Of a stretch of DNA of 39,917 bases, positions 19,148-38,284 are shown one piece after another. This stretch comes from Flavobacteriales bacterium (GTDB lineage: Bacteria > Bacteroidota > Bacteroidia > Flavobacteriales_H > JAHEZO01), in contig JAHEZO010000006.1 of the NCBI GenBank assembly GCA_023250995.1, forward strand, positions 1 to 39,917, in the 5' to 3' direction. Position 1 is the stretch's first letter. Every line of letters begins with the position of its first letter. Under the pieces are notes generated by a model. The model saw only the letters and a program-made list of their open reading frames with translations. It made no database searches and was not told where the DNA came from. The position numbers were made by a program, and so were the translations under genes.

Positions 19148-22100
19148 TTATCTCTGCAAAATAATTTTAAGGGGAAGTGAAATCCCCTCTTCCCTTAGAA
19201 CCTGCAAAAAATAAATTCCATTTCTGTTGCTGCCAATATCAACCTCCGATTTTTTATTCAAAATATCCGCTTCATATATTGTTTCCCCAAGAATATTTAT
19301 TACCCGCAACCTGCCATTCCCGGCTTTATATCCGTCATCCACTTGAACAATAAATTTCCCTTTGTTTGGATTTGGGAAAATCCTGTAATAATGATTTTGC
19401 GAATTTTCGGTTATTCCTATCTGGGTTGCAATGGTAATTGAAATAATTACAGAATCTCCTTCTGAATCTGTAATGGTACAATTATAAATTCCTGCACATA
19501 GGCCGCTGGCAGTTCCGGTGGTTTGACTGTTCAGATCATCCCATAGGAAAGAATAGGGTGCAATTCCACCTGTTGCGGTAATTGTTGCTGATCCGTCACA
19601 ATTACCCTGGGTGGCAGGAGTATTTGTTTCACTCGCATTAAGATCAACGGGTGTGGGTGCAAGCGGACTGGTTTTGTTTGACCGTGAAGAATTATGATTT
19701 TCTGATGACTTTGTAGCACTGCAACCTATTGGATGTTTTACTTCAACAAAATATCTTAAACCAAAAGGAGTGATGGTATCAAAATCAGTATAAGAGCTGA
19801 GGTTGCTCTGAAGAGAATCAATCAAGACCCATCCGGTAGCGGGTTTGTATCTCGAAATGTAATAAGTGGGGAAATAAAATCCCTGGTAATGATCCCAAAT
19901 AAGGTTAATGGTATTTCCGATTCCCTGATTAATGGTAAGATGAATGGTTTTATGTTCGGCACTCATGGGAGATTCGTTGCCACAGGAATCCAGCACAGAT
20001 AATTTATATCTCCAGGAATGTTGCATGGGGTTTGCAACCGGATCAACATACAAACTAAGTGAATCAAAAGGAACGGTTCCTGCCAGTTGATAAACTCCCG
20101 CCTGGGTTGATTCTTTGTAAACTTTGTAAGAAGAAATTCCTAACCCGAAATATTTTTGCCAAACAATTTTATTTGTCCCTAAGGCTGAATCAACGGTAAT
20201 AAGGCAAATCTCGGGAGCACCCGGCAGTTGCTGCAATATTTCGGCAGTCAGTGCGCCCTTGCATCCGTTTGCATCAGTCACAAGCAAATTATAAGTTCCT
20301 CCTCCAACCCCCACAAGATCTTCAGAAGTAAGCCCATTCGACCAGCTGTATAAATAGGGGGATGTTCCGAGACTAACCGAAACAAAAACGGACCCGTTTC
20401 CACCACAACCCGGGTTAATGATTGAATCAACCGTTACAGTTGGCCCTCCAATTTCCGCAATGGCCGCAGTGGCGGAAACATCGCAACCTTTAATATCAGT
20501 AACGGTAACCGAATATATTCCTGAGGCAAGTGCACTCAAAGATGAAGAAGTAGCTCCATTGCTCCACAAATAGGAATAAGGAGAAGTACCGCCAAGGGTG
20601 TTAATGATGGTACTCCCGTCAAAACTACCGCAGGTGGCATCGTTGGAAGTTACTGTAACCTCCATGGAAGGGGGCTCAACAACAGATAAGCTTTTTGTTG
20701 TCAAACATCCATTTGCATCCGAAACACTCACCTCATAAGGCCCAGCGGTTAGATTTGATAAATCCTGGGTTGTATAACCATTCGACCAGGAATAAATGTA
20801 GGGAGTATTACCCCCGGTAACATTTATATTTATAGCTCCTGAGTTTTCGCCATAACAATTTATTTGCGTAATTGAATTTACGGTTACCGTGGCACCACCT
20901 GTATCGCTAATGGTTGCAGCGGTAAAATTAGAACATCCTGAATTATCAAAAACAGTTACCGCATAAATCCCGGCACTTAAACTATCTGCTGATGCAAGGG
21001 TATCTCCGCTGCTCCACTGGTAATTGTATGGGGGATTTCCTCCCCCGGCACTAATCATGGCCGACCCATTGTTTACTCCACAGGAAGAACTAACGGTTGA
21101 TACAATCATTGAAATAGAATTGGGTTGACCAATAACTATACTGTCGGTTTTTGCACAACCTGAGGAATCAACTACCGTAACAAAATATGTTGCAGGACAC
21201 AGACCTCCTACGGCATCCCCATAATTCCCATCGCTCCAGTAAAAAGAATAGGGAGGAATTCCTCCGGTTGCGGTGGCCATTGCTGTTCCATCACAAGAAC
21301 CATTACAAAGCACATCTGTTTTCGAAAAGGAAACTGAAGTGGTGGATGGTGCAGTAATAAAATGTGATTTATATTTTGAGCAGCCATTTGCATCGGTTAC
21401 AGTAAGAGAATAATTTCCGGGGGATAAATTTCCAAGGTTTTGGGTGGTATCTCCGGTGGACCAATAAAAATCATAAGGCGAAACTCCTCCATTTACAAAA
21501 GCGTCAATATTTCCATCGGCATTTCCACAACCCGAGGCATCATAGCCGGCTAGGGATAAATTCATTGATGGAGGCTGATTAATTTGAACCGTTCCGCTGA
21601 TGGCACAACCGGTGTTATCAGTAACTGTACCCGAAAAAGTTCCTGAGGAAAGACCGGTAATTGTCTGGGAATTCTGTCCGTTACTCCAAAGGTAAACAAA
21701 TGGAGGGGTTCCACCGGAGGGAGTAATCGTAGCAGTTCCATTATTTGTTCCGCTGCAATTTATGTTTGTGGAATTAAAACTGGCCGTAAGACCGGATGTA
21801 GTTCCTACATTTACTGTTCCCACTTTTTTGCAGCCCTTATTATCGGTAACGGTAAGAAAATAATTTCCCCCGGCAAGCGAATTGGCCGAGGCACCCGTGG
21901 GTCCCCCCGGAGCTGACCATAAATATGAATAAGGCCCCGTTCCTCCAGAAACTGTAGCGGTTGCGCTTCCGGTGGCACTTCCGCAACCTGCAGGAACTAC
22001 ACTGAAAGATATTATTATTGCTGAAGGACTGATTAGGGTAATATTTCCGGTAGTTCCGCAACCGTTCACATCATTAACTGTTAAGTTGTAGGTACCTGCA

Positions 22101-24805: not shown

Positions 24806-27800
24806 CCCAAATTATCGGTAATTGTAAGTGAGTAGGTATTTGGGCATAGGGAACCAACAGAAGCCGTGTTTGCTCCGGTTGACCAAAGATAGGTGTAAGG
24901 GGGAACCCCACCCGTGGGATTGGTTGCCGAGATGTTTCCGTTGCAGGCTCCGTTACAGGTTACATTATTTTTAATAACTGTGATGCCGATGTCAGAATTT
25001 TGTGTAACAGTAAATGATTTTGTTTGGGTACAATTATTATCATCAGTAACCGTAACAGAATAAGTTCCTGCTGCAACATTGCTCAGGTTTGAAGTGGTGG
25101 CCCCGTTTGACCAAAGGCTGGAATAAGCGGGAACCCCTCCGGTAGAATTAATAGTTACTGCCCCTGTACTTGCTCCAAAACAATTAATATTATTTCCCGA
25201 GCCCGTAATAGTAATCGAATCGGGTTGTGAAATTACGGCAGTAGAAGCCCCGGTGGTGTTTCCTCTGCATCCAAGAGAATCGGTTACTGTTACATTATAG
25301 TTTCCAATGGATAACCCTGTTGCAGGATTGGATGTTTGGCCGTTGCTCCAGCTGAATTTATAAGGGGGAGTTCCGTTGGCAATAATATCCGTGGCTGTTC
25401 CTGTGCTTCCTCCAAAACATAGAACATCGGTGGTAGTAGTGGATAAAGAAAGAGTTTTCAGGAGGTTTTGGTTTTTATATATTGAAAGTCCAACAATATT
25501 TGAGTTATTGGTAAAAATAAAATCCGGTTTGCCATTACCGTTCAAATCAGTTAGCACTACATCCTGCAATGCGGAGAGCGCGGGATATGTTACTTTGGGA
25601 GCAAAAGAAAATCCTCCGTTATTTTTTATTATTGAAGGAGTGGTATTATTGCTGAATCCAACCGAAATATCAGGCAAATTATCACCGTTAATATCGGCAA
25701 TTGAAATTCTTCTCGGTGCTGCCGTTATGGAGTAGTTTTGTGCAAGAATAAGATTTATGGAACCAATGCTGCTGGTATTTTTAAAAAGGGCAAGCTTGTC
25801 CCCGGTATTAACCGGAACAATCACATCCAGTTTTCCATCAAGATCCAGATCGCTTAAATCAATATCAAGGGAATTTGTTCCCCCGCCAGTTATAGGAAAA
25901 GAAAAAAGGGAAGAAGAAAAATTATCTACCGAGCAATTATTTTTTAAAATATAAAGGGTGGATGTGGCGGTTCCCAAAGCAAGGTCAGGTTTATTATCAC
26001 CGTCAAGATCTCCGGCCGCAATCCGGTAAATCAATTGCGAAATGCTCCAAAAAGTTTTTTGAACAAAAGAAAACTGGCCCACCTTACCCGTGTTCCGAAG
26101 GATAAAAACATTATTGTTTGAAGCCACAACCACGTCTGCTTTCCCATCCATATCCATATCGGTAATTACAGGGGCGTATAACCCGGTAAAAGTAAAGGTG
26201 GAAACAAGAGTAAATGAAATGTTGCCGATAAACGAAGAATTTTTATAAATCAAAAGTTTATTGCTGTTTTGACATGCGATGACCAAATCAGGTTTCCCAT
26301 CCCCGTCAATATCTCCAGCGGCAACATACTGGGGATTTGTGTTTGGACTAATGCTTAAATTAAAAGAGGTTAAAAAGGAAATAGTATCACCGCTGCTTGT
26401 GTTCCGAAAAATCATTACTGTATTTCCGTTTCCATTATTGGTTATTGCCAGATCGGTTTTTCCATCTCCGTCAAAGTCGGCTGAACCAATATCATAAGAC
26501 CCATTTTGACTCGATATATCCAATTTGGATCCGAAAGTAGAAGTGGTAATGGCTGGATCGGCACAATAAAACCGGGGAGTAAAAATTAACGAAGAATAAA
26601 CTGTTTGTGCACAATTATTTGTAACGCTGATTATTTGGTTTGCTGCTCCCGGGGGTACAACAACTTTTAAAAGGGTATCATTACCTGAAATTGAAGTGGC
26701 TAAAACTCTTCCGAAATTTACAAAATCCATCGAGGGGCTGGAACCGAAATTTGTCCCGGTTATTGTGAGGGTATCTCCCGGATAGGCATTCAGTGGTGAA
26801 AAAGAATTAATTGTTGGAACAGCAGGTGCTCCAATAAAAATTGTTGCACTTACCACACAACCATTATCATCTGTTACATTTGCGGTGTGGTTTCCGTTAT
26901 ATAAGCCCGAAACTGTGGGCGTGTTTCCACCCGATGACCAGCTGTAAGAATAGGCTGTTGTCCCTCCGGTTGGAGTGATTGAAGCGGTCCCGTCATTCAT
27001 TCCGCATGTGGAATTGGTTTTAGAAGTGGTGGCCGAAAATGTTCCGCAACGGTCGTATTCAAAAAAATCGGCTTTGTAAACGCCAGAGGCATCATAACCG
27101 GTACCCACATAACCTTTAGTACCAATAAAAAATCCTTTTGCACCATACCTGGCAGAACCTCCGAAATCCGCCTTTTGAAACCAGGAATCTTTTGAGGGGC
27201 TGTATTCCCAAAAATCATTTTTATATGATCCGTTGTATCCTCCTCCAATATAACCTTTAGAGTTTGAGGCAAACCCAAATGCCAAATACCTTGTTGATCC
27301 CCCGAATGCCGCCTTTTGTGCCCAGGTGTTCGCGGTGGTATCAAATTCCCAGAAATCGTTAAGATAACCAGTATCATAACCCGTTCCCAGGTATCCTTTG
27401 GATCCAATGGAAAAACCTACCCCGTACCTTCTTGCCGTACCTGCAAAATTGGCTTTGGCAACCCATGCATTGGTAAGTGAATTATATTCCCAAAAATCGG
27501 TGAGATTCGCTGATCCGGTATAACCCGTTCCCAAATATCCTTTGGTGCCTATTGAAAAGGCGACCGCGGCATATCTACCAACTCCTCCGAAATTTGCTTT
27601 GGCGGTCCAGGTGTTGAGCGAAGGATCGAATTCCCAAAAATCAACCGGGTAGGTAGGTGAAGTTGATGCAAGTCCGGTTCCAACATAACCTTTTGCTCCA
27701 ATGGCAAAACCAACGGCATGCTGGCGGGCAGTACCCCCGAAATCAGCTTTCTGAGTCCATACATTTGTGCCGGGGTCAAATTCCCAAAAATCTTTTTTAT

Positions 27801-28041
27801 ATGTTCCATCCGTACCGGTACCCAAATAACCTTTTGTTCCAATTGAAAATGCCACGCCAAATCTTCTGGCCCCTCCTCCGAAATCGGCTTTTGGGGTCCA
27901 GGTTCCTTGGGCGTGGCAATAGTTGGTAACTAACCCTGTTACTAAAAGAAAAAGTAAAAAAGGGCGAACCTGTCCTACGTAGGATTTCAGGTTTTGAGTT
28001 GCAAAAGGGGCAACCGAAAGAATGGGGTTGAGATTTTTCAT
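24760..28041 (-). CDS. N-terminal third of the same adhesin: signal peptide, 6 Kelch repeats, SprB repeat, IPT/TIG, 7 FG-GAP/VCBS repeats, 3 SprB repeats
   Basis: Six W..KA.F.G..R...F.IG.KGY.GTG units; PTINSFSP...GDTLTITGTNF; seven D.DGDG..D motifs; frame lost at GCTK. Confidence 0.9.
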   Translation of the reverse strand: MKNLNPILSVAPFATQNLKSYVGQVRPFLLFLLVTGLVTNYCHAQGTWTPKADFGGGARRFGVAFSIGTKGYLGTGTDGTYKKDFWEFDPGTNVWTQKADFGGTARQHAVGFAIGAKGYVGTGLASTSPTYPVDFWEFDPSLNTWTAKANFGGVGRYAAVAFSIGTKGYLGTGYTGSANLTDFWEYNSLTNAWVAKANFAGTARRYGVGFSIGSKGYLGTGYDTGYLNDFWEFDTTANTWAQKAAFGGSTRYLAFGFASNSKGYIGGGYNGSYKNDFWEYSPSKDSWFQKADFGGSARYGAKGFFIGTKGYVGTGYDASGVYKADFFEYDRCGTFSATTSKTNSTCGMNDGTASITPTGGTTAYSYSWSSGGNTPTVSGLYNGNHTANVTDDNGCVVSATIFIGAPAVPTINSFSPLNAYPGDTLTITGTNFGSSPSMDFVNFGRVLATSISGNDTLLKVVVPPGAANQIISVTNNCAQTVYSSLIFTPRFYCADPAITTSTFGSKLDISSQNGSYDIGSADFDGDGKTDLAITNNGNGNTVMIFRNTSSGDTISFLTSFNLSISPNTNPQYVAAGDIDGDGKPDLVIACQNSNKLLIYKNSSFIGNISFTLVSTFTFTGLYAPVITDMDMDGKADVVVASNNNVFILRNTGKVGQFSFVQKTFWSISQLIYRIAAGDLDGDNKPDLALGTATSTLYILKNNCSVDNFSSSLFSFPITGGGTNSLDIDLSDLDLDGKLDVIVPVNTGDKLALFKNTSSIGSINLILAQNYSITAAPRRISIADINGDNLPDISVGFSNNTTPSIIKNNGGFSFAPKVTYPALSALQDVVLTDLNGNGKPDFIFTNNSNIVGLSIYKNQNLLKTLSLSTTTTDVLCFGGSTGTATDIIANGTPPYKFSWSNGQTSNPATGLSIGNYNVTVTDSLGCRGNTTGASTAVISQPDSITITGSGNNINCFGASTGAVTINSTGGVPAYSSLWSNGATTSNLSNVAAGTYSVTVTDDNNCTQTKSFTVTQNSDIGITVIKNNVTCNGACNGNISATNPTGGVPPYTYLWSTGANTASVGSLCPNTYSLTITDNLGCTKPGVPPSLNPLC

Positions 28042-28049
28042 GAGTGAAA

Positions 28050-28307
28050 TTATTTTAAAAAAAATTTAGCGGGGTTAATCGGTTGGCTTATTTCATAGAG
28101 ATATTCTGGTGCAAAATCTGCACCGTTATCCCACTCAATAGTATTGAAGGCAATTTTAAATGACTTAAACAAATTTAAGTCTTGCAACGGTAAGAACACT
28201 TGCCCTTGAAGCGAATTTTTTAAATCAACTATTTTTTTTTCTCCGTTATTAAACAGGATTTCTAATTGATAATCTTTAATATGATTTGCTGATTTTACTT
28301 CTAACAT
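28050..28307 (-). CDS. DUF2442 family protein (putative antitoxin)
   Basis: DYQLEILFNNG..K.VDL...VF.PL.D...F...TIEWDNGADFAPEYLY. Confidence 0.88.
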   Translation of the reverse strand: MLEVKSANHIKDYQLEILFNNGEKKIVDLKNSLQGQVFLPLQDLNLFKSFKIAFNTIEWDNGADFAPEYLYEISQPINPAKFFLK

Positions 28308-28313
28308 AATTAA

Positions 28314-28571
28314 TTAATTTAAAGGTTCAATTTTTTTTAAAGGAACTTTGTTTTTTGCATTTTCCCAGTTTTGCATTAGTTCATCCCGGTGAATTTCCAT
28401 CCAATCAAAAATTATTTTCAACGCTCGCTGAGGCATTTGTCCGTTTACAACACCTTCCATTATGGTTACGGTAATTTTATAATCACCATACCAAACATGG
28501 AAATGGGGAGGATTATGGTCGTTGTAGTTCATAAAGATGAACAATCCGTAAAACCTGCTTATTTCCGGCAT
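28314..28571 (-). CDS. DUF4160 family protein (putative toxin)
   Basis: MPEISRFYG..I.M.YNDHNPPHFHV.YG...W...H.DELMQNW...IEPL; real start likely ATG 28571 rather than 28619. Confidence 0.9.
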   Translation of the reverse strand: MPEISRFYGLFIFMNYNDHNPPHFHVWYGDYKITVTIMEGVVNGQMPQRALKIIFDWMEIHRDELMQNWENAKNKVPLKKIEPLN

Positions 28572-28787
28572 GGATTGAAGTTTTTTTTCTTGAAAATAAT
28601 TTTCGTCATCATGGCTCATTACCGGACACTTAAGGAGAAACTTCTGAAATATTCAACGATTTTAAAAAAATGCCACAACCCATAAAAAAGAAGTTTGCCA
28701 ATTGTTCTGATTATTGCTTCCTTAAGTCTAAAATTAAGGTGTCAAATTTAACATTAGGGAAAGGATTAAAAAAACTTTTTTTAAAAC

Positions 28788-28960: not shown

Positions 28961-29671
28961 CTAATTGCTGCATATTTCTTCAAGTTTCTTTTTGTCAATA
29001 ATTTTAATTTTTCTTCCCTTGAGAGAAATGATTCCTTCCCTTTTAAATTCAGCAAGTGTTCTGCTTGCGCTGGCAATGGTCATCCCGGAAAGGGAAGAAA
29101 GATCATCTCTTCTGAGCAAGGTATTCAATGTTTTCCCATCCGAATTATCAACTCCATATGAATTAAATAATTCAAGCAGGGCTTCCGCCAATCGTGCTTT
29201 CAGCTGTTTTTGCGAAAGTATTATTGTTTTCCGGTGAGCTAATGAAAGTTCTTTTGCTAAAAATGCCATTACTTTCATTGATAATTCCGGGTTACCCTGA
29301 AGGACTTTTAAAAAATTGCTTTTATCAATAATGCAAACGGATGAGTCAACAAGGGCAACTGCCCGGGTGGTATATTTTTCATCGGCCATCATTTCGGTAA
29401 AACCTAAAAAATCAACCGGCTTTTTCAATTCTACTATTATTTCCTTTTCCTTTTCTCCCGAGATAACAATTTTTACTTTTCCTGAGTTCAGGCAAATTAG
29501 GCCAAAGGGATTTAATCCTTCCTTATAAATTGTCTCCCCGGTTTTATAATTTACAATGGTACGTGTTTTTTCCAGAGTTTCTAGCTCCCCATAGCTTAAA
29601 TTGCAAATGAGCGAAAATCCCTTTTTGGTGCAATTCATACACGTGTTCTGATCATTTGATCTTTCAATCAT
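28961..29671 (-). CDS. Crp/Fnr family transcriptional regulator with N-terminal Cys cluster
   Basis: CMNC-x8-C, cNMP-fold (YKTGETIYKEG...SGKVKI), RLAEALL, HTH (RDDLSSLSGMTIASASRTLAEF). Confidence 0.93.
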   Translation of the reverse strand: MIERSNDQNTCMNCTKKGFSLICNLSYGELETLEKTRTIVNYKTGETIYKEGLNPFGLICLNSGKVKIVISGEKEKEIIVELKKPVDFLGFTEMMADEKYTTRAVALVDSSVCIIDKSNFLKVLQGNPELSMKVMAFLAKELSLAHRKTIILSQKQLKARLAEALLELFNSYGVDNSDGKTLNTLLRRDDLSSLSGMTIASASRTLAEFKREGIISLKGRKIKIIDKKKLEEICSN

Positions 29672-29743: not shown

Positions 29744-29759
29744 TATGATAAATGTCATA
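29744..29759. promoter_or_regulatory. Crp/Fnr-type palindrome TATGA-TAAATG-TCATA in the divergent promoter
   Basis: Perfect 5-bp arms with N6 spacer between regulator and coxB; weaker ATGA-GATCAA-ACAT at 29723-29736. Confidence 0.65.
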
Positions 29760-29857: not shown

Positions 29858-30559
29858 ATGACCCTGTTCCCAGAAGACATAAGCACCTACGGCCATGAGA
29901 TAGATAATCTCTTTTATCTCATTTTAATTTTTTCAGGTCTTGCATTCATCATCAGTTTGTTTGCCCTTTTATACCCGGTTTTTATAAAAAGGGCAAAGGC
30001 AAATTATTTTACGGGAGATAAATGGAGCCATGTAAAATGGGTCGCCATACCTGTTATACTCCTTGCAGGAGCAGATTTTGTAATCCTTTATGTAGAACAC
30101 GGAACCTGGAAAAAGGTAGAGGAAAGTCCGGCAAAAACCGATTTGCAAATTGGAATTACGGGCCGTCAATGGAACTGGATTTTTACCTATCCCGGGCCCG
30201 ATAATCAGCTTTACACCAGCGATGATATTGTGGTGGATGAAATGGATGGGTCACTGCACGTTCCGGTAAATAAAACTGTTGAAATAAATCTTCGGGCAAG
30301 AGATGTAATTCATAGTTTTTCAGTTCCAAATCTCCGCTTTAAACAGGATGCCTTGCCTGGGAGAAATATTACAAGATGGATTCAGGCAACCAAGGCAGGT
30401 AAATTTGAAATTCAATGTGCCGAAATCTGCGGTATACTTCACGGAAAAATGCGCAATTTTCTTTTAGTTGAATCAGAATCCGATTACCTTAATTATTTGA
30501 AAGGTTTGATAAAGCCCGAGAAAAAAGAAACTGCAGATCTTGTTTCAGTATCAAAATAA
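29858..30559 (+). CDS. coxB: Heme-copper oxidase subunit II (CuA), no cytochrome c domain
   Basis: Two TM helices, GRQWNWIFTY, DVIHSF, CAEICGILHGKM. Confidence 0.93.
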   Translation: MTLFPEDISTYGHEIDNLFYLILIFSGLAFIISLFALLYPVFIKRAKANYFTGDKWSHVKWVAIPVILLAGADFVILYVEHGTWKKVEESPAKTDLQIGITGRQWNWIFTYPGPDNQLYTSDDIVVDEMDGSLHVPVNKTVEINLRARDVIHSFSVPNLRFKQDALPGRNITRWIQATKAGKFEIQCAEICGILHGKMRNFLLVESESDYLNYLKGLIKPEKKETADLVSVSK

Positions 30560-30586
30560 TTTACCAATAAATTAGAATTATTGTTT

Positions 30587-32269
30587 ATGAGCACCACCAA
30601 GGAAGGATTCTGGAGAAAGTATGTTTTTTCAACCGATCATAAGATAATTGGAAAACAATATACCATAACCGGACTAATTATGGCCTTGGTGGGCGGATAT
30701 TTAGCCTATGTTTTCAGAATGAATCTGGCCTTTCCCGGAAAGGCGATTCCTGTTTTCGGAGAGTTGGGCCCGCAGCAATACAATGCCTTTGTTACCATTC
30801 ACGGAATGATCATGTTTTTTTGGGTGGCCATGCCAATCCTACTTGCAGGTTTAGGAAATCTGTTGATCCCTTTAATGATAGGAACCGATGACATGGCCTT
30901 CCCCACAGTCAATATGATATCATTCTGGATTTTTCTTTTGAGCACAATAATTCTAATTGCTTCTTTTTTTGTTCCTGGCGGGGCCTCGGCAGGAGGCTGG
31001 ACTTTATATCCTCCGCTTTCAGCCAATGGGTATGTGAATGAAAGTCCTGATTTTTTCCCTACCCTTTTTTCGGGGACACCTTTATTAATTTTAGCAGTAG
31101 CACTTGAATTTACTTCAATGTTAATGGGAGGAATAAATTTTCTTACCACTACAATAAATAAAAGAGCACCCGGCTTAACTCCTTTCCGTCTTCCCCTTTA
31201 TGTTTGGTTTTCAAATATTGCAAGTTTGATTTTTATGTTCTCCGTTGGTCCTTTGGTTGCCGGAGCCTTAATGCTTTTAATGGATATTGTTACCGGTACA
31301 GGATTTTACAATGCCTACCGCGGTGGCGATCCAATTTTGTTTCAACATCTGTTCTGGTTTTTCGGCCACCCCGAAGTTTATGTGGTGTTGCTCCCTTCAT
31401 TAGGGGTTACAGCCGAAATTATTTCCACCTTTTCCAGAAAACCCCTTTTCGCTTACAAAGGAATTATTTATTTGGCATTAATTGCAGCGGTTCTTTCTGT
31501 TGTAGTATGGGCACACCACCAGTTTATTGCCGGAATTGACCCAAGGATGGCAACATTTTTTAGCGTTGGTACAATAATTATTTCGATTCCTTTCGCAGCA
31601 ATAATACTTTCTTTCATAAGCACATTATGGGGAGGGGCCATACGTTTAAAAATGCCCATGCTTTGGGCCATTGCAGGAATGGGAACATTTCTGGTTGGGG
31701 GCCTCACAGGATTATTTCTTGGTTCCTCCACTTTTGATATTTATGCACACGATACTTATTTTGTTGTAGCCCATTTTCATTTTGTACTTATCCCTGTGGT
31801 TTTCTTTGGAACTTTTGCCGCAATTTATTACTGGTATCCAAAATTTTTCGGGAGGATGCTCGATGAACGGCTTGGAAAAATCCATCTTTTTCTCACGGTA
31901 ACATCTTTTATATTTTTTGCATTCCCCCTGTTTTTCTCCGGCCTTGGAGGTGAACACCGTAGAATTTACGAATACTCAAGTTTTAATTCGCTTATGATTG
32001 GGCCATACCCTGCAATCCGTGTTATATCAACAGTAGCAACTATTATTATGATTTCATCCCAGCTTTTAATTATCATTAATGTATTGAGGAGTTATCGAAA
32101 AGGAAAAATTGCAGGAAAAAATCCATGGGAATCAAATACGTTAGAGTGGCAAACGGATTCCCCACCACCACATGGGAATTTCGAAAGTTATCCCGAAGTT
32201 TTCAGAGGTGCTTACGATTTTAGTTTGCCCGGAAAAGAGAAGGATTTTTTTCCGCAAAATGAAAAGTAA
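30587..32269 (+). CDS. coxA: A-family (GHPEVY) heme-copper oxidase subunit I, K-channel residues absent
   Basis: STDHKIIG, TIHG, DMAFP..N, GWTLYPPL, FWFFGHPEVY, WAHH, HDTYFVVAHFH, RR, NPW...LEW. ATG 30587 likely start. Confidence 0.95.
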   Translation: MSTTKEGFWRKYVFSTDHKIIGKQYTITGLIMALVGGYLAYVFRMNLAFPGKAIPVFGELGPQQYNAFVTIHGMIMFFWVAMPILLAGLGNLLIPLMIGTDDMAFPTVNMISFWIFLLSTIILIASFFVPGGASAGGWTLYPPLSANGYVNESPDFFPTLFSGTPLLILAVALEFTSMLMGGINFLTTTINKRAPGLTPFRLPLYVWFSNIASLIFMFSVGPLVAGALMLLMDIVTGTGFYNAYRGGDPILFQHLFWFFGHPEVYVVLLPSLGVTAEIISTFSRKPLFAYKGIIYLALIAAVLSVVVWAHHQFIAGIDPRMATFFSVGTIIISIPFAAIILSFISTLWGGAIRLKMPMLWAIAGMGTFLVGGLTGLFLGSSTFDIYAHDTYFVVAHFHFVLIPVVFFGTFAAIYYWYPKFFGRMLDERLGKIHLFLTVTSFIFFAFPLFFSGLGGEHRRIYEYSSFNSLMIGPYPAIRVISTVATIIMISSQLLIIINVLRSYRKGKIAGKNPWESNTLEWQTDSPPPHGNFESYPEVFRGAYDFSLPGKEKDFFPQNEK

Positions 32270-32290
32270 GAATTTTTATTCAAAATTGCC

Positions 32291-32896
32291 ATGTCTCAAA
32301 CAACCGTTTCCGTTCCAGCTGCAAGATACATCCCTCAGGGCCGATTAGGCATCTGGATTCTTATAGCCGGGGAGTTAATTATTTTCGGGGGGCTTATTGC
32401 ATGCTACCTTTTATATCGCCTTCGTTTCCCCGAATGGGGTGCCCAGGCAGCCCACACCTCCACCCTTCTGGGGGCAATAAATACCCTTGTGCTTTTAACC
32501 AGCAGCTATACCATTGTTAGAGCTCATTCGGCCTCCCTCGAAAGGGAAAAAACAAAAATTATCAAATGGATGATTGCCACCATTTCACTTGGGTTTGTTT
32601 TTCTTGCTATTAAAACTATCGAGTACTCAAATGAAATAAGCCATGGATTCACCCTTACCAGCCCTTCACTCGTGAAGGCAGGAGATTCCGTTGGCGCCAA
32701 CTTCTGGTCATTTTATTATTTCATGACCGGATTGCACGCTACTCATGTGATTGTAGGTATGATCATAATGACTGCTGCAATTTTTCAGGTTAAAAAAGAA
32801 AAAAATTTTCACCGTGTGGAACTTGCCGGACTTTACTGGCACATGGTTGACATTATTTGGATTTTCCTATTCCCCTTACTTTATATTGCAAAATAA
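32291..32896 (+). CDS. Heme-copper oxidase subunit III family (short form), paralogue 1
   Basis: GIWILIAGE..IFGGL, NT.VLLTSS, TGLHATHV, GLYWHMVDIIW. Confidence 0.9.
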   Translation: MSQTTVSVPAARYIPQGRLGIWILIAGELIIFGGLIACYLLYRLRFPEWGAQAAHTSTLLGAINTLVLLTSSYTIVRAHSASLEREKTKIIKWMIATISLGFVFLAIKTIEYSNEISHGFTLTSPSLVKAGDSVGANFWSFYYFMTGLHATHVIVGMIIMTAAIFQVKKEKNFHRVELAGLYWHMVDIIWIFLFPLLYIAK

Positions 32897-32905
32897 ATTT
32901 TTCTT

Positions 32906-33244
32906 ATGAATAATTACAGAGAATCTCACGAAGGCGTAATTCAACCCGAGCCGGAAACGGATTATCACGGCCATCCGAATTATACCAAAGTATTTTTTGC
33001 CCTGATCGGATTGCTTGCTTTTAGTTTGGTGCTTGGGTTTTTCACCTCTCCAATGATTGCAGTTTCACTTATTTTCTTTGTTGCAATTATTAAGGCAGGT
33101 TTTGTTGTAGGTAATTTTATGCATTTAAAATTCGAACCTATTTTAATTTGGATTGTGATTGGCGTAGTAATATTTATTCTTGCCACTTTTTTTCTTTGCC
33201 TTCTGCCGGATGTAACTTTTGTGGAGCGGATTCTTGCAAAATGA
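32906..33244 (+). CDS. Oxidase subunit IV family protein, paralogue 1
   Basis: Three TM helices, IKAGFVVGNFMHLKFE. Confidence 0.85.
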   Translation: MNNYRESHEGVIQPEPETDYHGHPNYTKVFFALIGLLAFSLVLGFFTSPMIAVSLIFFVAIIKAGFVVGNFMHLKFEPILIWIVIGVVIFILATFFLCLLPDVTFVERILAK

Positions 33245-33278
33245 TTTTACCCGTATTCTGTAAAATATTCATATTTAA

Positions 33279-33878
33279 ATGAAAACCTTTTATCCACAAA
33301 CTCTTCAGTTAGAAAAGAATCAGGAGCAAACCATACCTAATATGGTATTGGGAATTCTTTTTTTAATCACCACTGAAATTATGTTTTTTGCCGGAATAAT
33401 AAGCGCTTTTATCGTGAATAAAGCCGGAATGGAATGGCCTCCTGAGGGACAACCCAGGCTTCCGGCAGAAGTTACAGGAATAAACACCCTGATTCTCCTT
33501 GTAAGCGGAGGAACTCTGTATTTTGCCATCAAAAGTTTTAAAAAGAACAGTTTGAAATTATCGAAGTATTTACTTTTTGCAAGCATATTTTTTGGAGGAA
33601 TGTTTTTGATTGTTCAGGGAAAGGAATGGATAAAATTAATCGGCTTTGGACTCACAACCACTTCAAGCATTTACGGAGCTTTTTTTTATTTCATTATTGG
33701 CACCCACGGGGTACATGCATTGGCCGGATTGTTTCTTTTGGTTTATTTATTTTTCAAAGTAAAAAACATTAAATCCATTCAAATGGATTTTTTAGAAAAA
33801 TTCTCTGCCTTCAGTTTGTTCTGGTCTTTCGTTGTGTGTATTTGGCCCGTTCTATATTGGCTGGTGTACCTGAATTAA
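33279..33878 (+). CDS. Heme-copper oxidase subunit III family (short form), paralogue 2
   Basis: TEIMFFAG, WPP..QPRLP, NTLILL.S, Q..EW, GTHGVH, FWSFVVCIW. Confidence 0.88.
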   Translation: MKTFYPQTLQLEKNQEQTIPNMVLGILFLITTEIMFFAGIISAFIVNKAGMEWPPEGQPRLPAEVTGINTLILLVSGGTLYFAIKSFKKNSLKLSKYLLFASIFFGGMFLIVQGKEWIKLIGFGLTTTSSIYGAFFYFIIGTHGVHALAGLFLLVYLFFKVKNIKSIQMDFLEKFSAFSLFWSFVVCIWPVLYWLVYLN

Positions 33879-34109: not shown

Positions 34110-34245
34110 GAAAAATCGCAATTCTTACTAAAAAGATTTGGTAATCGCAACCGAATGATTTTTTTTGGTAAAATTGCAGGCCAAAAAAATTTATTTACAG
34201 GTAACTGAAAAGGTAATTATTCTTTTTTCAATATCCAATTTGAAA

Positions 34246-35139
34246 ATGACTCCCAAAACCGAATCGCTTTCCTTTCCCTCTATTATTTTAGCTAAGGTTT
34301 CCGATTTCGGACAATTGGTAAAATTGAGGCTCACCCTTCTTGTGCTCTTTTCTGCGGTGGCAGGATACATTCTGGGAGCAAATGTTTTTCTTTGGACCGA
34401 TTTGTTTTTCCTGATGGTTGGAGGCTTTTTGGTTACCGGCTCTTCCAATGCATTTAACCAGATAATAGAAAAGGAAACGGATAAGCTGATGGACCGGACT
34501 GCAAATCGCCCTCTTCCATCGGGTAGGATGATGGTATCGGAGGCCTTTGTGTTCGCTGCACTTATGGGAATAACCGGAGTAATTATTCTTTGGTTTTTTT
34601 TAAATCCGTTAAGCGGACTGCTGGGTTCATTGGCTCTGTTAATTTATGTTGCCATTTATACACCGCTTAAAAAAATTTCTCCCATAGCCGTTTTTGTAGG
34701 AGCATTCCCAGGGGCAATTCCCCCCCTTTTGGGTTGGGTAGCTGCTACCGGAAAATTTGGTGTGGAGCCCGGAGTATTATTTGCAATCCAATTCATTTGG
34801 CAATTTATCCACTTCTGGGCACTGGCCTGGAAACTGGATGGAGATTATAAAAAGGCCGGCTTCCGCTTATTGCCATCAGCAGGAGGGAAAAATAAATCCA
34901 CGGCCTTTCAGATTCTGGTTTATTCCTGTTTTTTAGTTCCTGCCGGCTTACTTCCTCTTATGTTTAATATTTCAGGTTATGTTTCCGCTGTTATTTCTAT
35001 TCTGGCCGGAGGGCTGGTGATTGTTAAAGCCGTAAAATTTTATTTCTCCTGTGATGATAAGGATGCTTTAAAATTAATGATTGCCGCTTATTTATATTTG
35101 CCGGTTATTTTACTGGCATATGTTTTTGACAAAGTTTGA
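34246..35139 (+). CDS. cyoE: Protoheme IX farnesyltransferase (heme O synthase)
   Basis: KLRL, NQIIE.ETDKLMDRTANRPLPSG, YTPLK, GAFPGAIPP, WQF.HF, DYKKAG. ATG 34246 preferred over 34165. Confidence 0.95.
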   Translation: MTPKTESLSFPSIILAKVSDFGQLVKLRLTLLVLFSAVAGYILGANVFLWTDLFFLMVGGFLVTGSSNAFNQIIEKETDKLMDRTANRPLPSGRMMVSEAFVFAALMGITGVIILWFFLNPLSGLLGSLALLIYVAIYTPLKKISPIAVFVGAFPGAIPPLLGWVAATGKFGVEPGVLFAIQFIWQFIHFWALAWKLDGDYKKAGFRLLPSAGGKNKSTAFQILVYSCFLVPAGLLPLMFNISGYVSAVISILAGGLVIVKAVKFYFSCDDKDALKLMIAAYLYLPVILLAYVFDKV

Positions 35140-35747
35140 CTAACATGAAAGCCGTTTCGGAAAATACCTTATTTCAGGAAGAAGAGCATTTGATTGCATC
35201 AAAAAGCAGAACTTCAAAATCCTTGTTATGGTTGGGAATTGTTAGCATTGTTATGCTTTTTGCCGGTCTTACGAGTGCTTACATTATCAGGCAAGCTAAA
35301 GGAGAATGGCTTAAATTTGATATTCCTTTTCAGTTTTATATCAGTACTGTACTTATCCTGCTCAGCAGCATTACACTTTTCGTTGCCGGCTCATCGGCAA
35401 AAAAAGATAAATATGGAGCAGTTACATTAAATGTTGGTGCGGCTGCTTTGCTCGGAACCGGCTTTATTGTTTCGCAATTTCTGGGTTGGGGTGCCATGGT
35501 TAAAAGCGGAATTTTTTTTACGGGGCCGGGAAGCAATGTATCTGCTTCATTTCTTTATGTTATTACCGCACTTCACGCAGCCCATGCTTTTGCCGGAATT
35601 ATTTCACTGATGATAATTTTTTTTAATTCCCTGAAAAACAAATACAATTCTAAAAATTTATTGGGCCTTCACCTTGGTTCAACTTATTGGCATTTTTTAG
35701 GTGCACTTTGGATTTATTTATTATTATTTTTGCAATTTATCAGATAA
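35136..35747 (+). CDS. Cytochrome c oxidase subunit III family, paralogue 3 (Bacteroidota type)
   Basis: SIVMLFAGLTSAYI, SFLYVIT.LH.AH, YWHFLG.LWIYL. Confidence 0.9.
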   Translation: MTNMKAVSENTLFQEEEHLIASKSRTSKSLLWLGIVSIVMLFAGLTSAYIIRQAKGEWLKFDIPFQFYISTVLILLSSITLFVAGSSAKKDKYGAVTLNVGAAALLGTGFIVSQFLGWGAMVKSGIFFTGPGSNVSASFLYVITALHAAHAFAGIISLMIIFFNSLKNKYNSKNLLGLHLGSTYWHFLGALWIYLLLFLQFIR

Positions 35748-35800
35748 AAAATACAGTTATCATTTTATCCCCAATTCCCAAATTTTAACTAAATCATATT

Positions 35801-36610
35801 ATGTCAGGCGAAGCTTCAAAAACAATTCCCACTTCCGAATTATGGGCAGGAGGACGGTCTCCTTTTAGCGTTAGTTATGGTAAAATGTATATGTGGTTTT
35901 TCCTCATATCCGATGCCCTTACTTTTGGTGGCCTTTTAACTTCGTTGGGTTTTTATAAACATAAATATGCCGATATATGGCCGGCAAGTGAAAAAGTTTT
36001 TGTTCACTTTCCCTTTTGTGGAGAAACACATCTTCCCCTTCTTTATGTGGCCCTGATGACATTTATTCTCATTGTAAGTTCAGTAACTATGGTTCTGGCT
36101 GTTGAGGCCGGCCACCGGATGAACAGGAGCAAAGTAATATTCTGGCTTGGCCTTACTGTGGTTGGAGGATTTTTCTTTTTGTTTTCCCAGGTTTGGGAAT
36201 GGTCGCATTATATTCATGGCAGCGAACTCGGGGCACTTCAACTTTCTGACGGGCAAATTGCTCATTGGGCTGACGAGGGGAAACATGCAATTATTCTTGC
36301 CAACGGAACCGCTTTGGGAGCTCAGGAATCCGCCCCTCTTATCGCCAATGCAGCGGAGGTATTCGGGGCCAACCTTCATGTGAATGAATATGGAACCCAG
36401 CTATATGCCAACTTTTTCTTTTTTGTAACCGGGTTTCATGGCTTTCACGTTTTTAGTGGTGTAGTAATTAACCTGATAATTCTAATTATGGTTATCAAAG
36501 GGGTTTGCCAGAAAAGAGGACATTATGAATTAGTTGAAAAAACCGGTCTCTACTGGCATTTTGTAGACCTTGTATGGGTATTTGTTTTTACTTTTTATTA
36601 TCTACTGTAA
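35801..36610 (+). CDS. Cytochrome c oxidase subunit III family, paralogue 4 (Bacteroidota type)
   Basis: GG.SPF.VSYGKM.MWFFL.SDALTF, TGFHGFHV, GLYWHFVDLVWVFVF. Confidence 0.92.
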   Translation: MSGEASKTIPTSELWAGGRSPFSVSYGKMYMWFFLISDALTFGGLLTSLGFYKHKYADIWPASEKVFVHFPFCGETHLPLLYVALMTFILIVSSVTMVLAVEAGHRMNRSKVIFWLGLTVVGGFFFLFSQVWEWSHYIHGSELGALQLSDGQIAHWADEGKHAIILANGTALGAQESAPLIANAAEVFGANLHVNEYGTQLYANFFFFVTGFHGFHVFSGVVINLIILIMVIKGVCQKRGHYELVEKTGLYWHFVDLVWVFVFTFYYLL

Positions 36611-36648
36611 TTTCTCATTGTAAAATTTTATTCAAGAATTTTTAAACC

Positions 36649-37020
36649 ATGGAAAGAGACGATATTATTGAATATTCGCTGGATGCTCATCATAGCGAGG
36701 AGGAGGGAAAAGCCCTTAGAAAAAAAATTGTTTTTGTTACCATTCTTTTAGCCACAGTAACAGCTATTGAGGTGTTGCTGGGAGTATGGTGGAGTAGTTT
36801 GCATCTCCCCTGGACCATGGTAAAACTGGGTTTTATTGGTATGACTCTTTTAAAGGCAGGATATATTGTGCTTGTGTTCATGCACCTGGGAGATGAAAGA
36901 AAATCGTTGAAATGGGCTATCCTGGGGCCTTACATGCTTTTCATCAGTTACCTTATTTTTATTTGCCTTACCGAAGCCATGAAATTATATGACCTCCGGC
37001 ATTTGTTCGGCTGGCTTTGA
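36649..37020 (+). CDS. Cytochrome c oxidase subunit IV family, paralogue 2
   Basis: VTAIEV, TLLKAGYIVLVFMHLGDE. Confidence 0.88.
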   Translation: MERDDIIEYSLDAHHSEEEGKALRKKIVFVTILLATVTAIEVLLGVWWSSLHLPWTMVKLGFIGMTLLKAGYIVLVFMHLGDERKSLKWAILGPYMLFISYLIFICLTEAMKLYDLRHLFGWL

Positions 37021-37087
37021 ATAATACAATAATATTCCCAAAAGCGTTTTATAGTTTTCCTTCCTTGATTTCTATTTTCAGGAATTT

Positions 37088-37756
37088 ATGAAACCTCACC
37101 ATAAAAAGTTCCTGGTTTTAATTGTTATCCTTCTTTTTCCCTCCATACTTTACCTTTTTTTAAAATCCGGAAGGCATCATATTAAAACCCTCGAAATTTT
37201 TGGCCCTCGGGAACTCAACGAAAAGGGAGATACCATATTTCATGTTATTCCGGATTTTGAATTTACCAACCAATACGGAAAATTAATTTCGAAAAAGGAT
37301 TTTGAGGGAAAATTTTTTGTTGCAGATTTTATTTTCACTACATGCAAAACCATTTGCCCAAAAATGAGTGAACAGATGGCAAATATCCAGGAAAAGGTGA
37401 AGGATATGGATGATGTACTTTTAATTTCTCACACTGTTGACCCTGAAGAGGATTCGGTTCCAGTGCTGTTTGATTATGCAAAAAAAATGGGAGCCAAAGA
37501 GGGAAAATGGCATTTGGTAACCGGTGATAAAAAGCGATTGTATGATATTGCCAGGCATGGGTATCTGGTTACCGCCATGGAAGGAGATGGAGGGCCGGAC
37601 GATTTTATTCATAGTGAAAAATTCTTATTAATTGACAAAGAAAGTAGAATCAGGGGGTTTTATGACGGAACCGATCCGGTGGAGGTTAAAAGGTTAACGG
37701 ATGAAATAAAGGTTTTAAAATTTGAAGAACAAATTCCAAGAAAAGAACGAAGGTAA
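37088..37756 (+). CDS. SCO/SenC copper chaperone
   Basis: DFIFTTCKTICP (CxxxC), TVDPE.D, FIHSE, IRGFYDG. Confidence 0.95.
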   Translation: MKPHHKKFLVLIVILLFPSILYLFLKSGRHHIKTLEIFGPRELNEKGDTIFHVIPDFEFTNQYGKLISKKDFEGKFFVADFIFTTCKTICPKMSEQMANIQEKVKDMDDVLLISHTVDPEEDSVPVLFDYAKKMGAKEGKWHLVTGDKKRLYDIARHGYLVTAMEGDGGPDDFIHSEKFLLIDKESRIRGFYDGTDPVEVKRLTDEIKVLKFEEQIPRKERR

Positions 37757-37762
37757 ACTCCT

Positions 37763-38284
37763 ATGGCCAAAGCAAAAACCTACTTTTCCCTCATCATTTT
37801 TGCTTCCTTGTTAATTCCCCTTGTAGTTACCATACTTTATTTTGGTCCAAAATTAAAAGTAGGGGTTGACTTGAGTTTTCTCCCTGCATTAAATGCAACA
37901 CTTAACGGACTAACTGCGATAATGCTCACTCTGGGCTTTGTGGCAATCCGTAAAAAAATTATTGATGTTCATCAAAGGTTTATGACTTTTGCCATGATAT
38001 TATCGGTAATTTTTCTGGTTTCATACATTCTGTATCACAGCACTTCTGAGCCCACCCCATTCGGAGGTCAAGGGTTTGTAAAATACCTTTATTATTCGCT
38101 CCTTATTTCTCATATTTTTCTTGCCATAGTTATTGTACCGCTGGTACTGATCACCTATGTTAGGGCACTTTCAAAACAGTTTGATAAGCACCGGAGAATA
38201 GCAAAAATTACGTTGCCTCTCTGGCTTTACGTTTCGGTTTCGGGTTTTGTAGTTTACCTTATGATTTCGCCTTACTATAAATGA
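37763..38284 (+). CDS. DUF420 (CtaM-like) oxidase assembly membrane protein
   Basis: LPALNA.LNG, H..FM, FLVSY..YH, LISHI.L, H.RIA..T.PLWLYVSVSG. Confidence 0.9.
   Translation: MAKAKTYFSLIIFASLLIPLVVTILYFGPKLKVGVDLSFLPALNATLNGLTAIMLTLGFVAIRKKIIDVHQRFMTFAMILSVIFLVSYILYHSTSEPTPFGGQGFVKYLYYSLLISHIFLAIVIVPLVLITYVRALSKQFDKHRRIAKITLPLWLYVSVSGFVVYLMISPYYK

Follow-up and report, generated by a model that had tools for sequence, protein, structure and literature searches.

Can an A-family heme-copper oxidase work when the residues of its K-channel are missing from both subunits that normally carry them? This question is raised by a locus of a Flavobacteriales bacterium (GenBank assembly GCA_023250995.1, contig JAHEZO010000006.1, positions 1 to 39,917 of the forward strand), and the whole stretch of 39,917 nucleotides that was analysed is called the window in the following. 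The two genes concerned lie on the forward strand: subunit II (29858..30559, 233 amino acids), recognized by Pfam COX2 and by alignment to R. sphaeroides subunit II, retains its CuA site intact and is devoid of a heme c domain, and subunit I (30581..32269, 562 amino acids), recognized by PF00115, has an A1-type active site and a D-channel and is without the K-channel residues. Why A-type oxidases need two channels, and how proton delivery is switched between them, remains a matter of debate based on the mutants of few model enzymes, and K-channel mutants of such enzymes are almost dead. In canonical enzymes, according to PMC10341450, the chemical protons of the reductive phase arrive through the K-channel and everything else moves through the D-channel. 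From the evidence collected here it is very probable that the window encodes a member of a functional oxidase subfamily lacking the canonical K path.

Channel residues of subunits I and II

Solved A-family oxidases were aligned by HMMER to the 562 amino acid open reading frame. The alignment ran without gaps through helix VIII, residues 165-352 of subunit I aligned to residues 187-373 of R. sphaeroides 1m56_A, and the codon coordinates were confirmed by translation. Glu265, Tyr267 and Asn186 correspond to E286, Y288 and N207 of R. sphaeroides and Glu176 falls on S197, while Ala278 (31412..31414, forward strand) occupies the position of S299 (S255 in the bovine enzyme), and the helix VIII segment S335-I-P-F338-A-A-I341 (31583..31603, forward strand) places Ser at A356, Phe at T359 and Ile at K362. 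In the K362M mutant entry 3om3 the Met falls in the I341 column. An initial annotation of the sequence had proposed exactly these replacements of Lys by Ile, Thr by Phe and Ser by Ala, and they were confirmed by the gap-free alignment and by the translation of the codons.

In subunit II the residues S57-H58-V59-K60-W61 stand opposite Leu-Glu-Ile-Ala-Trp of R. sphaeroides, with His58 (30029-30031) at the position of the entry Glu, E101. Among the best 83 homologues of this subunit none retains the Glu, the position being occupied by His in 50 and by Gln in 29 cases, and Lys or Arg is found two residues further on (+2) in 75. The annotation was right about the loss of the entry Glu, with the correction that the substitute is not apolar: polar His or Gln is followed by Lys or Arg in this large majority. 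Every residue by which the K-channel of the A family is recognized is thus replaced: Lys362, Thr359, Ser299 and Glu101 of subunit II by Ile341, Phe338, Ala278 and His58, respectively.

For the conservation counts we compared a clade set of 127 sequences (the query, which is the subunit I of the window, 119 database proteins, six genome loci and one representative of a 50% cluster) with 101 Lys-bearing, canonical sequences. The six His ligands (H74, H263, H312, H313, H398, H400) and Y267 are present in 127/127 clade members each, and so are the D-channel residues N93, D104, N111 and N186, the helix VI Glu (E265) that marks the A1 subtype, and the Arg pair R460 and R461. H390 is likewise found in all 127 sequences and D391 in 124, and the CuA ligands (His, Cys, Cys, His, Met) in 82 of the 83 subunit II homologues, the remaining one having a gap there. 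The metal ligands, the His-Tyr motif, the D-channel, the Mg site, the Arg pair and the CuA centre had been described as intact in the initial annotation, which is borne out by their conservation across the clade.

The family membership of subunit I is clear from its PF00115 score (429.4 bits against a cut-off of 34.8), and its identity to solved or canonical aa3-type oxidases is 36-43%. The AlphaFold 2 (AF2) model has a pLDDT of 90.8 and 12 long helices, the first of which starts at residue 20, and Foldseek superimposed it on P. denitrificans 1ar1_A with TM scores of 0.88/0.93. Both subunits remain below the curated cut-offs of the corresponding NCBIfam models: subunit I scored 572.2 against 670.75 with CtaD_CoxA (TIGR02891), and subunit II 133.8 against 147.7 with CoxB (TIGR02866).

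Conservation, signature and phylogeny of the clade

Close homologues that retain Lys and Thr would have spoken for a defect private to this gene, and none was met among the best 120 database homologues (60-100% identity, the protein of the window included), both residues being absent in 120/120. At the Lys position the clade has Ile (86), Val (20), Leu (7), Met (4), Trp (4), Thr (4) or Ser (2) and Lys in 0/127 sequences, in contrast to Lys in 101/101 canonical ones. Phe occupies the Thr position in 123/127 clade members, and at the S299 position, which is Ser in 101/101 canonical sequences, the clade has Ala 61, Gly 52, Ser 7, Cys 4, Leu 2 and Ile 1 times. The synonymous sites of subunit I are saturated in every pair, with proportions of synonymous differences (pS) of 0.72-0.96 against nonsynonymous ones (pN) of 0.07-0.24; in the sole pair with a computable dS, L090/L091, dN/dS is about 0.03. 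Private decay or a sequencing error is ruled out by the homologues without Lys and Thr, the saturated synonymous sites and the conserved protein.

The arrangement of the genes is conserved as well. On the forward strand subunit I is followed by a subunit III-like protein a (IIIa; 32291..32896, 201 amino acids, Pfam COX3), subunit IV (32906..33244, 112 amino acids, Pfam COX4_pro) and a subunit III-like protein b (IIIb; 33279..33878, 199 amino acids, Pfam COX3), the final gene of a five-gene unit. The order II-I-IIIa-IV-IIIb, with its subunit IV, recurs in six loci, namely L006 (Spirochaetia), L007 (Deltaproteobacteria), L008 (Kapaibacterium) and L089, L090 and L091 (genomes of the Bacteroidota phylum), where the taxon names of loci and homologues are database labels. 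The Fibrobacteria loci L004 and L005 have II-I-IIIa-IIIb, no subunit IV match being found there, and the L003 (Cytophagales) locus stops inside IIIa; IIIa follows subunit I in L003-L008 and L089-L091, and IIIb is present in L004-L008 and L089-L091. Further homologues of the clade are labelled Calditrichia, Gemmatimonadales, Oligoflexia and Leptospiraceae.

The related loci also point to the electron donor. A mono- or di-heme cytochrome c gene is situated directly upstream of subunit II in L003, L008, L090 and L091, and in the two Fibrobacteria loci (L004 1582-2964, L005 2071-3027) subunit II carries at its C-terminus a cytochrome c domain containing a single CxxCH motif; a caa3-like form of the K-less enzyme consequently occurs, too. 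In the window itself no cytochrome c gene adjoins the oxidase operon. The adjacent or fused cytochrome c of these six related loci supports a cytochrome c oxidase, and together with the CuA ligands it distinguishes the enzyme from the quinol oxidases.

After clustering at 50% only a few representatives of the clade are left, and identity to the next relatives does not exceed 45%. The clade was monophyletic both in the FastTree phylogeny of 171 sequences (support 1.00) and in the IQ-TREE phylogeny of 85 sequences (LG+C20 PMSF, quick search, ten trait columns removed), where its support in the Shimodaira-Hasegawa-like approximate likelihood-ratio test (SH-aLRT) was 100. In the latter tree its sister (95) is a Lys-bearing group made up of the canonical paralogue type of the source genome and proteobacterial coxN-type genes. 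The check suggested with the annotation has therefore given a monophyletic K-less clade, a conserved operon and purifying selection, the last measured as dN/dS in one computable pair; the view that the coordinated loss marks a specialised, selected sub-family gains support from the SH-aLRT value of the clade, the operon and the saturated pS as compared with pN. In P0238 (504 amino acids), a deep-branching relative of the clade, the CuB histidines are lost together with the D-channel Asp; it is probably a degenerate or misassembled copy.

Clade-level hits (at least 67-68% identity) were obtained in 3/401 sampled genomes of the phylum, the source genome counted in, and one further carrier was found among 41 relatives. 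All four carriers also hold a Lys-bearing paralogue and three of them a third heme-copper oxidase, that is, the clade enzyme is rare and always accessory where checked. In the source genome, which is 92% complete in 341 contigs, there are two PF00115 matches only; the second, canonical A-family subunit II/I pair is on contig C312, and cytochrome bd was not detected in this 92% complete assembly. The idea that the K-less enzyme replaces a missing high-affinity oxidase does not generalise, given the third heme-copper oxidase in genomes G409, G349 and G309.

The clade is characterized not only by losses. Glu176 (31106..31108, forward strand), a buried Glu of helix IV at the top of the D-channel, is present in 127/127 clade members, and the canonical set has an acidic residue there in 0/101. 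Gln314 (31520..31522, forward strand), directly after two CuB histidines, is equally invariant (127/127) where Met stands in 98/101 canonical sequences, and the same is true of Ser335 (127/127; canonical Ala 93, Gly 7, Ser 1). On the P-side (the periplasmic side of the membrane), near the heme propionates, His459 (31955..31957, forward strand) precedes the Arg460-Arg461 pair in 120/127 members instead of the Pro of 87/101 canonical enzymes, and Phe451 is found in 127/127 in place of a neighbouring His of 86/101 canonical ones. The canonical D-channel entry residue Asp104 is preceded by an extra acidic residue, Asp103 (the two codons at 30887..30892, forward strand); this position is Asp in 112 and Glu in 11 clade sequences (acidic in 123/127), and Pro in 41 and Arg in 40 of the 101 canonical ones. 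Additionally, the Trp four residues past the Lys position is lost, the S200 position is Ala in 76 and Ser in 51 members, the S201 position (listed for 126/127 members, mostly Met) has Ser among none of the listed residues, and the loops of the P-side contain two insertions, at 55-61 and 152-162.

In the AF2 model, with the helix polarity usual for this fold, Glu176 lies at a depth of 11 residues in helix IV and Glu265 at one of 12 residues in helix VI, counted from their P-side ends, and Ser335 lies at the depth of Tyr267; all of these are estimates of depth only. S197, S200, S201 and N207 are among the D-channel residues, and A356 and W366 among the K-channel lining residues, listed in PMC10341450. 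The clade-specific polar gains are E176, S335 and residues of the P-side, namely Y43, Y151, Y243, Q314, R322, S382, Y388 and H459. When the 127 clade and 101 canonical sequences were compared column by column, no new conserved polar residue appeared in the N-side (cytoplasmic) halves of the helices except the acidic position 103. A substitute polar path on the N-side was rejected accordingly, the same comparison having yielded nothing beyond Ser335, Ser306 and the retained Glu279. We found no description of the clade or of the Glu176/Gln314/Ser335 signature in the literature; it may be listed in the supplements of Degli Esposti 2020/2021, with about twenty subclades, which were outside the search.

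Proton supply and the explanations weighed

According to the initial annotation the K-channel Lys is near-invariant in the A family, which is overstated in view of published K-less oxidases as well as of our own sample. Among 171 A-family sequences around the query Lys is present in 88 and absent in 83, and the absentees belong to at least five groups, i.e. this clade and at least four others: a second group with the Ala-Phe-Ile pattern, fused subunits I+III with Gln for Lys, the group of L009 (Planctomycetota label) and smaller ones. On the 85-row tree the state of the Lys position has to change at least six times. When this clade and the second Ala-Phe-Ile group were forced into one clade the log likelihood fell by 45.2 and the approximately unbiased (AU) test rejected the constraint (p-AU 0.014), on a 32-row subset that excludes 53 rows, including all of the Lys-to-Gln, L009-type and grp5 groups, and for a group that was named after the tree had been seen. 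Cytochrome c oxidases (COX) which lack the K-channel and retain the D-channel are described in acidophilic Fe(II) oxidisers and in relatives such as Thioclava, where those of the Fe(II) oxidisers are working O2 reductases, and multiple K losses are inferred in archaeal lineages (bioRxiv 10.1101/2020.03.01.968255 and PMC8239418); a K-less oxidase is also noted for Ferrigenium (bioRxiv 10.64898/2026.01.22.701106). As working K-less oxidases are known, another substrate is not needed to explain the loss of the Lys.

Three of the other variants can be described in some detail. The subunit I of L092 (6770-8542 of G033:C49, Bacteroidota phylum, 590 amino acids, 47% identical to the query) has Ile for Lys, but Ser is kept at the position of the Thr, as is the Met that follows the CuB histidines. 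Its operon is coxMNOP-like (II-I-III-III-IV), and it represents a K-less variant of its own. P0144, P0170, P0174, P0199, P0207, P0221, P0236 and their relatives, about 650-860 and mostly about 840 amino acids long, have Gln at the Lys position, a helix IV Glu one residue past the Glu176 column and often a further Glu at the N207 position. They are probably subunit I+III fusions, and both of their channels look remodelled. In P0148, P0173, P0178, P0150, P0146, P0158 and P0171 the helix VIII motif often starts with Thr-Glu (Glu at 332) and has Ser at 335, and the Ala-Phe-Ile pattern of P0148, P0173 and their relatives looks convergent with that of the query clade.

Across this sample Ser at A356 occurs in 1/88 Lys-bearing sequences, in 39/40 members of this clade, in 22/31 other K-less sequences and in 0/12 of the Lys-to-Gln type. 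An acidic residue at 176, 177 or 332, the depth of Glu265, is found in 0/88, 39/40, 11/31 and 11/12 of them, respectively, and the site differs, being 176 in helix IV in this clade, 177 in the Lys-to-Gln clade and 332 in helix VIII in others. We put forward as a hypothesis that the loss of Lys may be recurrently compensated by an extra Glu or Ser. In its full form, the loss of the K-channel would be a recurrent and viable design, each time with a new buried carboxylate at the depth of the catalytic Glu and usually with Ser at A356, and this clade would pump protons with the D-channel only, Glu176 having assumed the part of Lys362 in charge compensation and proton donation; this is possible, but we consider it rather unlikely as a whole.

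The narrower idea of a cytochrome c:O2 oxidase which obtains all of its N-side protons through the D-channel, with Glu176 as an added relay, seems to fit the sequence data and the model best, and we give it somewhat less than an even chance. The genes at 29858-33878 would encode a functional A1-type cytochrome c oxidase in an accessory role, with O2 reduced to water by electrons which come from a c-type cytochrome through CuA, and pumped as well as chemical protons from the cytoplasmic side would all use the conserved D-channel. The top of this channel appears to be rebuilt, with the helix IV serines largely gone and the invariant Glu176 predicted beside the catalytic Glu265. Glu176 could act as an internal proton donor and charge compensator during the reduction of heme a3-CuB, which is the usual role of Lys362, while Ser335 might stand in for the lost Thr hydroxyl near the cross-linked Tyr, a residue required for O2 chemistry (PMC11214002). 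The divergently encoded FNR-like regulator described in the next section probably controls the expression, suggesting use at particular O2 tensions. In an RNA data set from the sample in which the DNA was best represented no contig matched 28900-38300, which speaks neither for nor against expression.

Several points weigh against this explanation. In the oxidised R. sphaeroides oxidase no water links the D-channel's end to the binuclear centre, according to PMC10341450, therefore a D-only route needs a rearrangement. A polar His or Gln of subunit II and Glu279 of subunit I (95%) persist at the mouth of the old channel, where a vestigial water path is possible. Few independent events connect the loss of Lys with the extra Glu or Ser: there are four independent pairs on starred branches, in which Lys loss and Ser changed the same way 3.3 times and the opposite way 0.0 times on average (sign test, median p 0.25). 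Furthermore, a canonical oxidase is always co-present where checked, so the K-less enzyme need not be an efficient O2 reductase.

The persisting polar residues lead to the alternative of an O2 reductase with a water-only wire in the space of the old K-channel, where Ala or Gly at 278, 302, 339 and 340 would open a cavity whose mouth is formed by His58 of subunit II and Glu279 of subunit I, as in the B-family K-analogue channel without Lys. The Glu of subunit II is exchanged for His or Gln in 79/83 homologues, with the Lys or Arg at +2 mentioned above (75/83), Glu279 is 95% conserved, the canonical Ile (99%) at 302 has given way to Ala or another small residue next to the Ala/Gly of 339 and 340, and Ser335 and Ser306 (81%) would line the upper part. 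However, the bulky Phe338 (123/127) stands in the middle of the path, and no B-family-like ladder of Ser, Thr and Tyr is conserved between 338 and 345. Moreover, the equivalent of R. sphaeroides H96 of subunit II, position 53 by counting back from E101=His58, is Gly in 118/120 sequences, H96 being an alternative entry residue according to PMC10341450. Altogether we regard the water wire as improbable. The other O2-reducing alternative, which has a slightly smaller chance, would take the reductive-phase chemical protons from the periplasm in the manner of NO reductases, with a lower charge yield, along a remodelled P-side cluster of Gln314, His459, Gln/Glu458 and Tyr388 and the loop insertions. 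It agrees with the location of the majority of the clade-specific polar gains and of both insertions on the P-side, but the fully kept D-channel and its Glu argue for a pumping enzyme, and the P-side changes might just as well adjust the exit path or the docking of a partner.

It might also be supposed that another oxidant bypasses the reductive phase, the enzyme being a proton-pumping cytochrome c peroxidase acting on H2O2, or an NO-reducing or NO-tolerant enzyme at the oxic-anoxic boundary. The R. sphaeroides K362M mutation abolishes oxidase turnover and leaves peroxidase activity, FNR-like control would suit micro-oxic or anoxic use, and the enzyme is always an extra oxidase. On the other hand, its active site is of the O2 reductase type: the NO reductases of the superfamily (cNOR, qNOR, eNOR, sNOR, gNOR and others) have lost the cross-linked Tyr and have altered CuB/FeB ligands (PMC11214002), while here the Tyr and the three CuB His are invariant without the changes of those families. 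A di-heme cytochrome c peroxidase is already encoded elsewhere in the genome, and the K-less oxidases of the Fe(II) oxidisers do reduce O2. This alternative is about as improbable as the periplasmic supply. A decaying or non-functional paralogue could be suspected from the absence of residues whose mutation inactivates model enzymes, and from the missing His ligands of the deep relative P0238. Nevertheless the catalytic residues are all 127/127, saturated synonymous sites contrast with a conserved protein, and the five-gene operon is kept in members labelled as several phyla; decay is contradicted by these conservation data and is excluded in practice.

Neighbouring genes and comparison with known oxidases

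Divergently from the oxidase operon a Crp/Fnr-family regulator is encoded (28961..29671, reverse strand; Pfam cNMP_binding and HTH_Crp_2). Its best NCBIfam matches are Fnr (3.5e-20) and FnrL, both under the cut-off (72 bits against 228 for Fnr). Orthologues are located divergently upstream of the oxidase operon in L003 and L089, and the Cys residues C11, C14, C55 and C113 are kept in all three orthologues, in a spacing unlike that of E. coli FNR. The protein is a candidate O2/redox sensor. A palindromic Crp/Fnr-like box, TATGAT-N4-RTCATA, is found between the regulator and subunit II (29744..29759). It is the sole site in the 39.9-kb window, where 0.51 would be expected with up to 1 mismatch; it is present in the equivalent intergenic region of G409 (L084/L089) as well, whereas the other loci compared are without it, except for L002 and L083, which are copies of the window itself. 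As the box of the regulator it might serve as a lead only, the pattern having been derived from the window and G409 loci themselves. The classic FNR box TTGAT-N4-ATCAA is absent from the oxidase promoter. A perfect copy at 37962-37975 within the DUF420 gene is its sole match in the window, below the chance expectation of 4.3 (up to 1 mismatch).

Downstream of the five-gene unit a heme O synthase (CtaB/CyoE; 34165..35139, forward strand, Pfam UbiA) is encoded, whose product may serve both oxidases; CtaB adjoins the K-less operon in L089 and lies near it in L006, and the source genome also encodes a heme A synthase. According to Pfam, the following genes (35136..38284, forward strand) comprise a CoxO/CoxP-like subunit III pair, a second subunit IV, SCO1/SenC and DUF420. 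They are probably the partners of the canonical oxidase on the other contig and not of the K-less enzyme, because the III-III-IV trio trails a Lys-bearing subunit I in L031 and L051; the same trio trails the subunit I of the separate K-less variant in L092, too. On the other side, a DUF4160 + DUF2442 gene pair (28050-28619, reverse strand) separates the regulator from a large surface protein gene. Two very large open reading frames of 1885 and 1093 amino acids (19148-28041, reverse strand) probably encode secreted surface proteins unrelated to the oxidase; the translation of the latter has many Gly/Thr-rich beta-propeller-like repeats and FG-GAP-like Asp-Gly-Asp stretches.

More than 100 sequences, diverged and under selection, of an A1 enzyme that is orthodox apart from its missing K-channel are a natural test case for the two-channel question. 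The invariant or near-invariant accompanying changes (Glu for S197, Ser for A356, the Gln that follows the CuB histidines and the His that precedes the Arg pair) can be transplanted into the model enzymes of R. sphaeroides or P. denitrificans to test the rescue of K362 loss. It should be considered in annotation and metabolic modelling that hits to "cytochrome c oxidase subunit I" in metagenome-assembled genomes from groundwater and sediment conceal functionally distinct subfamilies.

With the canonical A1 aa3/caa3 oxidases of R. sphaeroides, P. denitrificans and mitochondria the clade shares the 12-helix fold, the six His, the His-Tyr motif, the D-channel with its Glu, the Mg-site His-Asp, the Arg pair and CuA. 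It differs from them in the replaced K362, T359 and S299 positions and subunit II E101, in the additional Glu of the S197 position, Gln behind the CuB histidines and Ser of the A356 position, in the non-Ser S201 and mostly Ala S200 positions, and in the exchange of the His before the end of helix XI for Phe together with the new His preceding the Arg pair. K-less oxidases as such are already in print, and the query is not a new kind of enzyme. The K-less COX of the Fe(II) oxidisers (bioRxiv 10.1101/2020.03.01.968255; PMC8239418) likewise have a hydrophobic residue (e.g. Ile) for the Lys, a replaced subunit II Glu and a retained D-channel, but they are described as of the A2 type with two extra N-terminal helices, whereas the query has 12 helices from residue 20 and the A1 Glu; unlike in their case, a rusticyanin/Cyc-type context is absent from the window. 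On the number of helices and the A1 type, the assignment of both to the same group was rejected, as judged from that published description.

The proteobacterial alternative oxidases of the CoxMNOP type and the canonical Bacteroidota oxidase (the C312 paralogue) form the sister group (SH-aLRT 95, 41-47% identity) and, like the K-less operon, have more than one subunit III-like gene. They keep the Ser/Thr and Lys in 73/73 loci (L010-L082) and in the paralogue, and their gene order is II-I-III-III-IV in place of II-I-III-IV-III. The B- and C-family oxidases resemble the enzyme proposed here in using one proton channel for chemistry and pumping, and the sequence similarity of ba3 to the query is remote (E about 1e-9). 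These families keep a K-analogue channel without a D-channel (PMC11214002), whereas the query has kept the opposite one.

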